Assembly (NCBI GenBank): GCA_036628655.1
Contig: JAZKRN010000098.1
Location: 1-10,212, forward strand
Length of the DNA stretch: 10,212 bases
DNA from: Desulfohalobiaceae bacterium
GTDB lineage: Bacteria; Desulfobacterota; Desulfovibrionia; Desulfovibrionales; Desulfothermaceae
Direction: 5' to 3'
The notes below the pieces were generated by a model, which was not told the origin of the DNA, did not search any database, and was given only the letters and a program-made list of their open reading frames with translations. Every line of letters begins with the position of its first letter. The first letter of the stretch is position 1. Positions 4,009-10,212 of this stretch are shown here, piece after piece. Both the position numbers and the translations under genes were made by a program.

Positions 4009-4144
4009 GGGGCACCTTGTCCCGCCCCTGCCTTTTCTCCACTCGAAACCATTGTGCACGGACGCGGGTGGTTGTCTTGACATATCAAAATTGTTGCGAT
4101 GACGTATGCAGGAACACACGAAACGCCACCCTGCGAAGGAAAGA

Positions 4145-5059
4145 ATGAAAGCGGTAATGCGCAAAGCGATCCACCCAATTCCCCTGCTCGGGATTTGCCT
4201 CCTCGTGCTGCTGCTCGGCTGCGAGGGCGTCAATCTGCGACAGGCCAAGGAGGCCGGCGAGGACGCGGTCAAGGCGGTCACCCTGTCCGAGGAACAGGTC
4301 CGGGAGCTGGCCCGGCGGGCCGCGGAGAGGGCGGACGAGGAGCACGAGCTCGCCCCGCCCGAAAGCAGCTACTCTGGACGCCTCGAGCGCCTGGTCCGGG
4401 AACACGGCGAGGAGGAGGGCCATTCCTACGAATACAGGGTCTATCTCTCCTCCAAGGTGAACGCCTTTGCCATGGCTGACGGCTCCATACGGATCTACAG
4501 CGGGCTGATGGACAAGATGAGCGATCAGGAGCTTCTGTTCGTGCTCGGGCACGAAATGGGGCACGTGGTGGAGAACCACATTATGAAGAAAATGCGGGTG
4601 GCCCTTGCGGGCAGCGCCCTCCGCAAGGGGATCGCCTCCCAGGAGAACGTGATCGGCGAGCTTGCGGAGTCGCAGCTGGGCGGGCTGGTCAACAAGCTCA
4701 TCCAGGCACGGTTCTCCCGGGAGGAGGAAGAGGAAGCGGACCGATACGCTGTGCGCTTCATGCAACAGGAGGGGTACAATCCCCACAAGAGCGTCTCCGC
4801 CCTGAAGAAGCTTGGGGCCATGAGCGCAGGGAGCTCCCTCCTCTCCAGCCACCCCGCCCCGAAGGCGAGGGCCGAGAAGGTGAAGGAGCAGCTCCGCTCC
4901 GGGTTGGAGGACGAGGAGGATACCGGGATCTGGGACACGATTTGGGGACTGTTGCGGACAATCGGTCACTGGGTGGTCGATGCGATCGCCTGGGTGATCG
5001 ATCTGATTCCGGGGGTGGAAATCCCCTCCGAAGATCCCCAAAAGGCGATGGAGGTCTGA
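4145..5059 (+). CDS. M48-family zinc metallopeptidase, lipoprotein (YcaL/LoiP/BepA-like)
   Basis: HEMGH (HExxH) motif, NAFAMADGSIRIYSGLM and a lipobox LLLGC after MKAVMRKAIHPIPLLGICLLVLLLGC. The track ORF begins at 4106, but the ATG at 4145 has GAAGGAAAGA just upstream and yields a proper lipoprotein signal peptide. Confidence 0.8.
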   Translation: MKAVMRKAIHPIPLLGICLLVLLLGCEGVNLRQAKEAGEDAVKAVTLSEEQVRELARRAAERADEEHELAPPESSYSGRLERLVREHGEEEGHSYEYRVYLSSKVNAFAMADGSIRIYSGLMDKMSDQELLFVLGHEMGHVVENHIMKKMRVALAGSALRKGIASQENVIGELAESQLGGLVNKLIQARFSREEEEEADRYAVRFMQQEGYNPHKSVSALKKLGAMSAGSSLLSSHPAPKARAEKVKEQLRSGLEDEEDTGIWDTIWGLLRTIGHWVVDAIAWVIDLIPGVEIPSEDPQKAMEV

Positions 5060-5181
5060 TTGGTCTGTCCGGCGTGCTGGTTTTTTTCTGAAGACCAATG
5101 GGCTCTAACAAACCCGGCTCTTCGTCAACTCGTTGTGTGGTGCATCCGACAGGGCTGTTTACGAACCATTGCTTCCGCTAT

Positions 5182-5493
5182 GGTAACTATTCAGCACCTC
5201 CCTGGATTCAGCCTGAATGTTCGCGGGGTTTTTTGAATCTATCCAGCGTAGACTCTGTTCGATTTTCTTCGCTCGCCACGTGGGGGAAACCCGACCGTGA
5301 AAATGCTCATCATGGACTCAAGCTCATTACTGAAGGTGTTTTGCCGAGCCTTGGAACAAGAGCAGCGAAGGAGAGTCGGGTGGGGGCAGGGATGCCCCCA
5401 CGTGGCGAGCGTTAGAAAATCCAGAGTCGGAGGTTCAAGATTCAAAAAGGCCCCGCGAACATGTCGGTTTCGGAAGATGGTGAATAGTTACCC
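5182..5493. repeat. About 310-bp imperfect inverted duplication (two ~115-bp arms around an ~80-bp centre) in the M48-SprT intergenic region
   Basis: Three nested exact or near-exact inverted blocks. Outer: GGTAACTATTCA 5182-5193 vs 5481-5492. Middle: ATGTTCGCGGGGTTTTTTGAATCT 5217-5240 vs 5435-5462, 2 mismatches. Inner: GACTCTG..GATTTTCT..CGCTCGCCACGTGGGGG 5251-5286 vs 5395-5435. Each arm holds the palindrome CCACGTGG, and CCGCTATG flanks both ends in the same orientation. Confidence 0.6.
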
Positions 5494-5568
5494 GCTATGT
5501 GTCATTTTTCCTCTGTACCCTGTCTTCTGGCCAGCCCATAGCCTCATTTTATCAAAAGTGGAGATCCC

Positions 5569-6123
5569 GTGCTCACCGTCGACTCCGGCATCCCCCACGA
5601 GATCAGGCAGCGCTTCGAGGATGAATACGCCGCGATCCGCTCCCTCGTGCCGGATTCCAAGGCCTTCGACTCCGCGCGCAAGCACGTGTGCTTCAACAAC
5701 CGCTTGCGCACCTCTGCCGGGCGGGCAATCCAGGACCGGAACAACCGGCACTGCTGGCGGATCGAGCTCAATCCCAAATACTATGCGACATACGGCCTGG
5801 AGCGGGTGATCGGGACCTACAGGCACGAGCTCGCCCATGTGGCGGCCTGGGTCTTTTATCGGGAGCCTGGGCACACCAGGAACTTCAAACGGTTCTGCGA
5901 GCTGTTCGGCGGCACGATGAATCCCGACCAGGCCGGGAAGCGGGCATCCGCCAACGCCACAACAGAGTATCTAACCACTCCCCCCAAGTGGCGCTACACT
6001 TGCCCCTCCTGCGGGCTCACTTTTACCAGAAAACGCCGGCTGCCGAATAAGACCATCGAGCGGGCCTGGTGCGTTCAGTGCCGAACACCGGCTCGCAAGC
6101 TTCTGAGGGAGCAGTTGCGGTAG
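5569..6123 (+). CDS. sprT: SprT-like zinc metalloprotease with a C-terminal zinc ribbon
   Basis: HExxH in TYRHELAHVAAW, then GHTRNFKRFCELFGG, and a CPSCG...CVQC C-terminus typical of SprT-family proteins. GTG start at 5569 with GGAG 5 nt upstream. Confidence 0.8.
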   Translation: MLTVDSGIPHEIRQRFEDEYAAIRSLVPDSKAFDSARKHVCFNNRLRTSAGRAIQDRNNRHCWRIELNPKYYATYGLERVIGTYRHELAHVAAWVFYREPGHTRNFKRFCELFGGTMNPDQAGKRASANATTEYLTTPPKWRYTCPSCGLTFTRKRRLPNKTIERAWCVQCRTPARKLLREQLR

Positions 6124-6194: not shown

Positions 6195-6355
6195 GAGCTC
6201 TCGGATTCAATGGACATCATGGAAAGCAGCAGTTGCATTCGAAGCAAGTGCGCTAATAACGTTATCGGTTATTGGAGAATTGGAGAATTGGGGAATGGGT
6301 AAAGAAAAATGCGTTCACCGCCCGCTCCCTTCGGTCGCTCGACGTGCGGGACATT

Positions 6356-6468
6356 CCCCGCGGCGGACCGTTGCCGCGGGGAAGGGCGCAGGCAAGCTTC
6401 GCTTGCCGCAGGCCCGCCGAGGCAGACCCGAGGCTGGGCCCTGTGCCCTGCAACGGTCTGCAGGGCAC
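6356..6468. repeat. Cluster of three GC-rich perfect hairpins (REP-like)
   Basis: CCCCGCGGC / GCCGCGGGG at 6356-6381. GGCAAGC / GCTTGCC at 6391-6407. GTGCCCTGCA / TGCAGGGCAC at 6443-6468. None has a T-tract. Tandem octamers AGAATTGG x3 lie just upstream at 6271-6299. Confidence 0.4.
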
Positions 6469-6663
6469 AATCCATGTCCCTCTTGTCCCCCAAGTCGAGT
6501 GAGCGCCAGCGAACGGGCGGTTCTCTGAATAGTGACGAGTGATGAGTTATTCGTTATTCGGATAAGGCTCTGGCCTTGATCACCAAACAGGGATTCTCAA
6601 TTAATCCGGCCTCGAAAAAGAACTGTAAAACAGGTGCACATTCATATTGCAACTGATCACGGG

Positions 6664-6712
6664 ATTTCATCCGCTATGGAGCTGTGTAGACACTCCGCTA
6701 CCGCTGGGAAAA
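6664..6712. repeat. Dispersed repeat copy 1, overlapping the pilin stop codon
   Basis: ATTTCAT..TGTGTAGACACT-ccgcta-CCGCTGGGAA. The conserved blocks are shared exactly with 9393-9440. The near-palindromic core GTGT-AG-ACAC covers the pilin TAG at 6698-6700. Confidence 0.55.
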
Positions 6713-7153
6713 CAACAACCAGAACATTCCCTTGCCTTTACAGAGGGATCCACTGCATTCGTCCTCGCTTATGGCTTTTGCGGAAGAGTTGACTGAATAG
6801 TATTTATCACCATTATGATGCCATGCACATATCTCAAAAGTATCGTTGGAACCGGAATATCCAATTTCCACATTGTCTGAGGACTCAAAATCAAGAGCTA
6901 AAGTGTCGATTTCAGTTGGGCTCCCTCCATTGAAATAGGAATCTCCTTGTGGAACAGAGTGTCCTTCTAAACTGGTTTTGGTCGTTTTTAACTCGCTCTG
7001 TGCAGCTGTATTCATTGCCGATGCCCTGTGTTGCGAATAGAGCGAGACCGCGATTGAGGCCAGAATGGCGATGATGGCAACTCCAATTATCAATTCGATC
7101 AGCTCGAATCCCATCTGCCGCAAGATTTGCGTGCTTAGTGCCCTTTTTTGCAT
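6698..7153 (-). CDS. Type IV prepilin-like protein with N-terminal cleavage/methylation motif, 151 aa, PilA-like with C-terminal Cys pair
   Basis: MQKRALSTQILRQMG|FELIELIIGVAIIAILASIAV shows the class III signal: Gly at -1, Phe at +1, Glu at +5 and a hydrophobic helix. C-terminal Cys residues (EICAW, DECSGSLC) could form the pilin disulfide loop. Strong RBS AAGGAGG 5 nt upstream of the ATG. The gene is AT-richer than its neighbours. Confidence 0.8.
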   Translation of the reverse strand: MQKRALSTQILRQMGFELIELIIGVAIIAILASIAVSLYSQHRASAMNTAAQSELKTTKTSLEGHSVPQGDSYFNGGSPTEIDTLALDFESSDNVEIGYSGSNDTFEICAWHHNGDKYYSVNSSAKAISEDECSGSLCKGKGMFWLLFSQR

Positions 7154-7576
7154 CCTGCCTCCTTATTTCCCCCATGTATGAGAACATGATTCATGATTGC
7201 AGGCTCTAGTCTTCACCAATGCAATTGCTGTTCCTTCAATCTTGACTTTGAAAGAATCGATTCTTCAGCTTGAAATGAATAATCTCTTTGCCGGTATATC
7301 TCAGTTTCTGTCCCATGGGCCATTCGTTGCTTGTCGAAATCTTTGAATCAGTCGTTCCAAAAAATTGGTCTTTGGTGACAGGATACGTCACCTTCTCCAC
7401 ATCTGAGCGTGTGCAATGCCACGTGATCCTTATGTCCCAGTACACACGCTTCAGGATTCCCGGCCCCTATAGGTCAGGCTTGCGTCTGGTTCTGGAGAAG
7501 GGTATTGACCCCAAAGGCGCGGACACAGACTGAACCCTTCCAACAGGCCGTCCGATTCAGGAGAAAAGGAGGAAGA

Positions 7577-9440: not shown

Positions 9441-9590
9441 TCCTTGGATCCAGGGTATGTCCCCATAGTTTAAAAAGATATGGCTGGTTTGGAGTGGCAT
9501 ACACTGATAGAATAAACCAAGGGTAATCCATTTTAGGTTATCACACCTGATCAATTTACATAGTCATTACCAATAAAAAAGGAGAGTGTT

Positions 9591-9806
9591 ATGGCAATGT
9601 ATACACCAAATAGAGTGGTTCTAGATGGAAATGGTCAAGTATTTATACTTCGTAACAATGAAACGAAGCCTATGAAATGTCCATTTAATCATGATGATTG
9701 TACTGATAAATGTCCGTTATTAACAGAGATTTATGATGAGGAAGATTATCACTATATAAAGTTATGCAATGGGAGTACAATACAATTTGCTCAAGATAAT
9801 AGATAA
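9591..9806 (+). CDS. Hypothetical small Cys-containing protein (71 aa), orphan, AT-rich codon usage
   Basis: AGGAG lies 6 nt upstream of the ATG. Four Cys residues (KCPFNHDDCTDKCP...LCNG). A strong bidirectional terminator sits 70 nt downstream. Its composition is unlike the GC-rich core genes. Confidence 0.5.
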   Translation: MAMYTPNRVVLDGNGQVFILRNNETKPMKCPFNHDDCTDKCPLLTEIYDEEDYHYIKLCNGSTIQFAQDNR

Positions 9807-9876
9807 AGATTAAAAAAATGTGTATAACAGTGTACTGAGAGCACATACTACTCCTGAGGGCTTATTGGCAGGCCAC

Positions 9877-9911
9877 AAAAAAGGGGTTACGGCTTACCCG
9901 TAACCCCTTTT
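9877..9911. terminator. Bidirectional Rho-independent terminator
   Basis: A6, then GGGGTTACGG-cttac-CCGTAACCCC (perfect 10-bp stem), then T4. Confidence 0.75.
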
Positions 9912-10212
9912 ATCATGGTGGAGACGATGTCCATCACATTAGCATATCAACTTACTGTAATTTATATATTTATTTTGTAACTATATAAAAAATACCCCCC
10001 AAATCTACCCCCATAGGCAAGCTGCTCTCATCATTGAGGAATGGGTGCTCTTGAAAGAGGGAGGAGTGGGGCAAATAGTAATAGTAGAACTATCTCCTTC
10101 AATATCAAATTGTTATACAGCATCAAATTTCCATTTTTCCGCTTGCTAGGGATATGCCCTACGCGGAACTTCTCCAGAAGTCCTCACAGACCAAATATGA
10201 GCCTCTTCTTGT

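Follow-up and report, generated by a model that had tools for sequence, protein, structure and literature searches.

Positions 5183-5491 of the window (the whole analysed stretch of 10,212 nucleotides from a Desulfohalobiaceae bacterium, contig JAZKRN010000098.1) are very likely a non-autonomous DNA transposon (MITE) inserted in the spacer between an M48 peptidase gene and a SprT-like gene. This identity rests on a set of features. The element is short and non-coding, it has terminal inverted repeats and fixed 8-bp target-site duplications, and it belongs to a family of dispersed copies that are present or absent at orthologous sites. The copy in the window is best read as a recent transposon insertion missing from a close relative, and not as a regulator that evolved for the two metalloprotease genes.

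The element and its neighbourhood

The element is an imperfect palindrome of 309 nt on the + strand (Table 1). It starts 124 nt past the stop codon of the M48 gene and ends 78 nt ahead of the SprT start codon. The Pfam matches confirm the location given in an earlier note on this DNA, between two protease genes. Both genes lie on the + strand, and the element is co-directional with them. The SprT orthologues (57-90% identity) have a common GTG start in all cases. The window scan found no tRNA or tmRNA genes. Likewise, no second copy of the MITE family is present within the window, in agreement with what the note had observed.

A comparison of complete copies, first 23 and later 33, set the ends of the element. 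The nucleotide preceding GTAAC differs from copy to copy, so 5183 and 5491 are the outermost bases of the element. The earlier note had placed it at 5182-5493; the ends lie just inside these coordinates. Since the base outside GTAAC is variable, the flanking direct repeat of the window copy is exactly 8 bp. The repeat reported to abut both outer ends in direct orientation is this 8-mer, CCGCTATG, and it corresponds to the target-site duplication.

The repeat finder and the alignment recovered the inverted arms, the replaced segment and the unique centre that had been described, and the palindrome is indeed found in each arm. The repeat finder gives 86-91% complementarity for the arm blocks 5182-5202/5472-5492, 5217-5240/5438-5462 and 5270-5292/5389-5411. 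In a global alignment, the left arm and the reverse complement of the right arm share ~80% identity over ~110 nt. This same alignment shows one segment replaced and a centre found only once. The nhmmer profile of the family aligns to the window copy over profile positions 1-310.

The predicted shape of 5183-5491 is a single long imperfect hairpin. As RNA, the predicted energy is -157.3 kcal/mol (z -8.6) for the + strand and -148 kcal/mol (z -9.6) for the - strand. Folded as DNA, the region gives -80.8 (z -11.1). In each of the three cases, 0/100 shuffles were as stable. The huge hairpin proposed for a read-through transcript therefore holds as a prediction, with the + strand value. A chance local duplication was also considered as the origin of the arms. 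It was rejected, given the dispersed family described below and the 0/100 shuffles that fold as well.

Table 1. Features of the element and its flanking genes, in window coordinates
Feature	Position	Strand	Basis or remark
M48 peptidase gene, upstream neighbour, outside the element	4106..5059	+	Pfam PF01435, E 1.6e-29
Left target-site duplication copy, CCGCTATG	5175..5182	.	Identical 8-mer flanks both ends; single CCGCTATC in empty site L042
MITE, long form, arm subfamily 'A', 309 nt	5183..5491	+	+ strand is the family orientation throughout
Left terminal inverted repeat, GTAACTATTCA	5183..5193	+	Near-invariant alignment columns 1-11
Variable co-varying helix, left strand (AATGTTCGCGGGGTTTTT)	5216..5234	+	Pairs with 5445-5463
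Left invariant core, GATTTTCTTCGCTCGCCACGTGGGGGAAACCCGACCG (contains CCACGTGG at 5276-5283)	5261..5297	+	Near-invariant in 20/20 long copies
Palindrome CCACGTGG	5276-5283 and 5398-5405		One per arm
Variable centre module of the long form	5298..5370	+	Copy alignments; no ORF kept across the module
Right invariant core	5371..5429	+	Invariant columns, long-copy alignment
Local hairpin GTGGGGGCA-GGGA-TGCCCCCAC within the right core	5380-5401	+	Tip of the whole element in short copies
Variable co-varying helix, right strand	5445..5463	+	Pairs with 5216-5234
Right terminal inverted repeat, TGAATAGTTAC	5481..5491	+	Comparison of complete copies
Right target-site duplication copy, CCGCTATG	5492..5499	.	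Identical to the left 8-mer
SprT-like gene, downstream neighbour, outside the element	5569..6123	+	Pfam PF10263, E 1e-14

Empty sites and mobility

Homologues of the SprT protein were found, and their contigs were fetched for the comparison of the spacers. In the comparison of orthologous spacers that the note had proposed, the element is absent from the M48-SprT spacers of three relatives. The clearest case is L042, whose SprT is 90% identical. This contig reads uninterrupted as ...TTACGAATCACGGCTT-CCGCTATC-TGTCATTTTTCCTCTGTA... (read out also as ...GGCTT CCGCTATC TGTCATTTTTCC...), with no element. It consists of the window sequence minus the element and minus one copy of the duplication, which makes it a precise empty site. 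The spacer of L037 (SprT 88% identical) has 300 nt and lacks the element; as it is not alignable to the window spacer, it shows the absence of the element and not a clean empty site. In L038 (SprT 77% identical) the spacer has 32 nt, again with the element absent.

Filled and empty states were also found for other copies of the family, in L024 versus L080 and in L091 versus L010 and L055. Apart from the MITE family, L010 has 150 nt extra (5868-6017) relative to the orthologous region of L091 (1096/1097), an unrelated indel.

The empty sites together with the duplications indicate staggered-cut transposition as the insertion mechanism. The mobility of the family is inferred from presence/absence and duplications in the sequences. 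In the window, the insertion into the M48-SprT spacer duplicated the 8-bp target CCGCTATG.

The earlier note had proposed an RNase III processing site, an attenuator or a riboregulator between the two protease genes. A locus-specific cis-regulatory RNA, evolved to control or uncouple M48 and SprT, would fit a position between co-oriented genes and the very stable hairpin predicted for a read-through transcript. Nevertheless, the element is missing from the spacers of relatives with 77-90% identical SprT, one of them with a precise empty site. Moreover, its sequence recurs at ~120 unrelated sites with different flanks, and it has no match to an Rfam family. The empty site and the copy number exclude a dedicated M48-SprT regulator, and we give this explanation almost no credence.

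The insertion could still have local consequences. Transcription from the M48 side would give the M48-SprT transcript a hairpin whose stem measures ~110 bp. RNase III could cut this hairpin, or it could stabilise the upstream 3' end. The element may act on the stability of the M48 3' end or on SprT expression, given its distances of 124 nt from the M48 stop and 78 nt from the SprT start. Any such effect would be a by-product of the insertion, and not the work of an evolved regulator.

A dispersed family in Desulfohalobiaceae

The note had recommended a search for the arm sequence in other places, and this search reached ~120 distinct sites in MAGs and metagenomes. We made an exact scan with the arm pattern TTCT N1-2 CGCTCGCCACGTGGGGG over one genome per GTDB species. 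It matched 36 contigs, 34 of them in four Desulfohalobiaceae MAGs. Many of these contigs have two inverted matches, with an inner spacing of ~9, 52 or 108 nt. The right-arm pattern recovered 79 further contigs from four samples of the JGI metagenomes, and most of its matches lie less than 100 nt from a contig end. Such clustering at contig ends is typical of repeats that interrupt assemblies.

With a profile made from 20 long copies, 149 matches were obtained in the related sequences gathered. After merging adjacent matches and removing sites with shared flanks, ~120 distinct insertion sites remained. The family was found almost wholly in Desulfohalobiaceae MAGs and a few JGI metagenomes. The arms of the window copy are 98-100% identical to copies in the MAG CAYNCR, so the window probably belongs to a near relative of this MAG, and the copy number in the window's own genome is extrapolated from such close relatives. 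There are tens of copies per genome in one group of Desulfohalobiaceae.

Two matches fall outside this distribution. L012 (1-265) is a contig of 265 nt with coverage 0.79 in the assembly of Streptomyces sp. P17, and it carries an element copy with 81% identity. It is most likely Desulfohalobiaceae-type DNA that contaminates this assembly. In L032 (Acidobacteria) the search pattern matched and nothing more, which looks like chance.

We scanned the whole window against Rfam 15, and no match reached the gathering scores. With E up to 10, the Rfam matches were only sub-threshold (10-21 bits against gathering scores of 39-49). A distant blastn found no similar sequence in the plasmid collection, and the pattern scan had no match to the family in viral contigs. 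The family sequence is absent from Rfam, the plasmid collection and the searched literature.

Anatomy of the family

All complete copies present the terminal inverted repeats GTAACTATTCA / TGAATAGTTAC, of 11 nt, at both ends. In the related sequences, 138 of 152 end matches are canonical MITE ends. Perfect 8/8 target-site duplications flank 17 of the 23 complete copies, each with a different sequence. The remaining complete copies mostly have duplication matches of 6-7/8 or a 6-nt filler. Considering all loci, 33 copies have duplications of at least 7/8, and the duplicated sequences differ among the 23 individually listed copies. The chance of a perfect 8-base flank match is ~1.5e-5 per copy. 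Together with the dispersed copies and the empty site, these duplications bear out the earlier suggestion of a MITE-like insertion with long subterminal inverted repeats.

The copies form three size classes, of ~209, ~251 and 305-311 nt. The shortest consist of two arms closed by a GGGA loop, with the centre module missing. Those of ~251 nt have a short extra hairpin in its place. The longest, among them the window copy, have a centre of ~75 nt. As one arm subfamily was found in all three classes, the centre is a module that can be swapped or deleted. The difference between the short and the long form is the segment between two GTGGGGG repeats, and this suggests that the short form arose by a deletion between them. 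There is no conserved ORF, and the stop-free frames vary between copies.

Other copies depart from these sizes. Two derivatives of 56 nt (L023 7930-7985) and 131 nt (L094 1115-1245) have the ends and the 8-bp duplications. A copy of 373 nt (L101 3449-3821) has ends and duplication, with ~60 nt extra in one arm. Among the loci L013 3865-4052 and L097 2916-3151, we observed an odd derivative with CGTTAC added between the right end and the duplication, and a variant with a CCGGCACTCAC hairpin in place of the invariant core. Adjoining a truncated copy, L026 106-317 is a sequence of ~212 nt that ends in TGAATAGTTAC and differs internally. It may be a sister MITE family with the same ends.

A unique centre flanked by long inverted arms is also what an invertible DNA switch or a recombination hot-spot would have, with the centre flipping between the arms, as the note had considered. 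However, the centre is oriented alike relative to the asymmetric arms in each of the 20 long copies, which come from several genomes, and many copies have no centre at all. Likewise, the immediate neighbours are the M48 and SprT genes, and no recombinase adjoins the element. We regard such a switch as extremely improbable.

The conservation of the MITE is not uniform. The 11-nt ends and the two cores (5261-5297 and 5371-5429, of 37 and 59 nt) are near-invariant, while the stretch from end to core is highly variable. The left-arm core is near-invariant also in the copies recovered with the right-arm pattern. This means that its conservation is not an artefact of the retrieval.

Covariation in the arms

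The near end-to-end palindrome is a property of the whole family. In the variable helix (5216-5234/5445-5463), the subfamilies differ at nearly every position and still keep the pairing. Examples are ATGTTCGC/GCGAACAT, TCTTCAAG/CTTGAAGA, GCCGACAC/GTGTCGGC, GCCTACCC/GGGTAGGC and GCCTGCAC/GTGCAGGC. Thirteen of the 18 pairs of this helix have changed on both sides, with 97% of the cells paired. Its covariation score was reached by 0/500 shuffles. When the 3' partner is slid by 1-3 columns, the pairing drops to ~41%. The bulges and asymmetries of the arms are kept across subfamilies. So, the difference between the arms already existed in the ancestor of the subfamilies, and the two arms have co-evolved from then on.

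The covariation indicates that the pairing matters for the MITE family, either in RNA or in single-stranded DNA. Together with the invariant core, it indicates that folding (as ssDNA or as RNA), a protein-binding core, or both matter for the spread or the tolerance of the family. Mismatches that would be G.U on the + strand are found in 111 cells, versus 84 that would be G.U on the - strand (p = 0.06, with non-independent cells). A.C mismatches are frequent in the terminal helix, and an apparent excess in the helices from RNAalifold carries a bias from the way this structure was predicted. With no clear strand asymmetry of G.U versus A.C, the constraint is not assignable to RNA over DNA. Template switching in quasi-palindromes can mimic compensatory change without selection.

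Compensatory changes at the RNA level were previously described in bcr1, a MITE-like repeat of Bacillus (PMC3184786). Compensatory changes in a MITE-like repeat are, with this precedent, not new in kind.

Orientation relative to neighbouring genes

To place the copies relative to genes, we used gene calls from a home-made, self-trained codon model, which reproduces the genes of the window that have Pfam support. The gene facing the right end of the element does so with its start at 60 sites and with its end at 23. For the left end, the counts are 18 gene starts and 31 gene ends. This bias has a Fisher p = 1e-4, and p = 0.03 considering complete copies only. Among the copies located between tandem genes, the counts are 15 co-directional and 5 antiparallel. 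Overall, the preference for the direction of the neighbouring genes is ~2-3:1. It points to an interaction with transcription or with the direction of replication, and a host function is not implied. The bias could also come from the transposase, if this has a preference, or from purifying selection on copies in one of the orientations.

The MITE might have been co-opted as a mobile structured-RNA module that acts on the stability, processing or termination of neighbouring mRNAs at many loci. Several observations on the sequences would agree with this: the helix preserved by compensatory changes, the 37-nt and 59-nt cores, whose invariance extends to copies retrieved without regard to them, and the orientation bias. 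Correia, ERIC and bcr1 provide precedents, the last one with compensation at the RNA level (PMC3184786). However, the strand asymmetry of G.U versus A.C was not found in the cells counted above. We found no match to a promoter or terminator consensus in or beside the element. Besides, the orientation test depends on the home-made gene calls, and the two sources of bias just mentioned could produce it as well. We consider this co-option unlikely, with some weight left to it.

The transposase and the IS66 lead

For the insertion of the MITE, we propose that a DDE transposase acting in trans would bind the GTAAC... ends. It would then cut the target with an 8-bp stagger and paste the element in.

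A search of 743 kb of related sequence for the autonomous partner gave no element with the ends of the MITE. This is weak evidence, since MAG assemblies tend to lose IS copies. In the same sequence, the end pairs that lie 0.04-6 kb from each other and have a duplication are all MITE-sized copies. Consecutive end pairs, with no duplication required, did not reveal an autonomous partner either. There were no long multi-copy repeats between loci; every long match between contigs was an orthologous region.

The inverted repeats of IS66 start with GTAAGCG, or GTAACCG in some members, and the elements have 8-bp direct repeats (PMC11946415, PMC12888890). The family presents GTAAC at both termini and 8-bp duplications, and both fit this description. 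The match to the published IS66 ends GTAAGCGTCCGG / GTAACCGTCCGGGCA covers the first 4-5 bases only, GTAA(C). In contrast with the IS66 terminal repeat of 20-30 nt, the conserved repeat of the MITE family has 11-12 nt. No transposase gene was found linked to these ends. Considering the GTAA ends together with the 8-bp duplications, an IS66-family transposase could move the MITE family, and we hold this for close to an even chance, slightly on the lower side.

The hairpin could instead be needed for mobility itself, if the element moved as a folded single strand, like REPIN/RAYT or integron attC. The Watson-Crick-preserving covariation without a strand-specific wobble signal would be expected from this, and so would the arm bulges and asymmetries conserved across subfamilies and the very stable fold predicted for ssDNA. 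Nevertheless, fixed 8-bp duplications and terminal inverted repeats are the signature of a staggered-cut DDE enzyme. REPINs and IS200/IS605-type elements are not known to make target-site duplications. Moreover, the derivatives of 56 and 131 nt have mostly lost the hairpin and keep ends and duplications, although a deletion after the insertion is possible. Compensation in a quasi-palindrome can also arise by the template switching mentioned above, as is established knowledge. Movement as a folded strand is improbable, and we maintain the staggered-cut transposition.

The core hairpin, with its GGGA loop and paired GCCACGTGGC boxes, and the structure-preserving arms might form a mobile RNA or ssDNA module, in which case the family would not be selfish DNA only. 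Its fold would be needed by a DDE (IS66-like) enzyme, or it would serve as a post-transcriptional signal recruited by the host at >100 intergenic sites. We find this proposal unlikely.

Other repeats and features of the window

An unrelated palindromic repeat is present at 6305-6536 of the window (GAACCGCCCGCTCCCTTCGGTCGCTCGACGTGCGGGACAT ... ATGTCCC..GTCGAGTGAGCG..AGCGAACGGGCGGTT). Its right end, CTGAATAGTGAC, is similar to the MITE end. This repeat was also found in L030 (~1172-1310), L048 (~1982-2140) and L053 (~10453-10594), and the window copy differs by an additional GC-rich hairpin segment in its interior. Two short dispersed repeats were observed at 2517-2651 (80-97% to segments in L101, L055, L077, L065, L095, L100, L013 and L005) and at 2703-2756 (94% to L004 481-534). 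Small repeat families seem to abound in the genomes related to the window. Inside the M48 gene, at its 3' end, there is a tandem repeat of 21 nt, or 7 codons, with 76% identity (4969-5010, CTGGGTGGTCGATGCGATCGC / CTGGGTGATCGATCTGATTCC).

The window has three low-GC islands, at 1050-2250 (30-39% GC), 6600-7500 (~44%) and 9450-10212 (~35%); elsewhere the GC content is 53-67%. In the first of them the GC skew is strongly positive, and no ORF there matches Pfam. These islands may be foreign or non-coding DNA.

Significance and comparison with known systems

This is an abundant MITE family of Desulfohalobiaceae, undescribed, and within a well-known kind of element. Its structure-preserving evolution, modular centre and orientation bias are worth noting, and all of them have precedents. 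Most copies lie at contig ends, so the family fragments metagenome assemblies. It also marks strain-level insertion polymorphisms. Its five or six arm subfamilies with compensatory changes, its three types of centre module and its orientation bias make it a clean natural data set on why some bacterial MITEs keep a full-length hairpin.

The family shares with bacterial MITEs the short and non-coding sequence, the terminal inverted repeats, the duplication of fixed length, the many intergenic copies and the presence/absence between genomes. The Correia elements of Neisseria and the ERIC/IRU of enterobacteria are also near full-length imperfect palindromes in transcribed intergenic regions. The hairpins that they form as RNA are substrates of RNase III or RNase E, and they alter the expression of neighbouring genes, depending on the orientation. 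An orientation bias is seen in the Desulfohalobiaceae family too. However, there is no sequence similarity with them. Correia elements duplicate TA, whereas the Desulfohalobiaceae family duplicates 8 bp. It is also 2-3 times longer than Correia and ERIC, and modular, with three types of centre.

With REPIN/RAYT, the likeness consists of hairpin-forming repeat doublets with co-evolving arms. The identity with REPINs was rejected. The family has DDE-type terminal inverted repeats and 8-bp duplications, and REPINs are not known to have either. On the side of the transposase, the likeness with IS66 is in the GTAAC ends and the 8-bp duplications.

The bcr1 element of the Bacillus cereus group is also MITE-like, with direct-repeat flanks and compensatory changes that keep the fold (PMC3184786). 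It has ~155 bp and 5-bp repeats and is known to be transcribed. The Desulfohalobiaceae family, in contrast, has 209-311 nt and 8-bp repeats.
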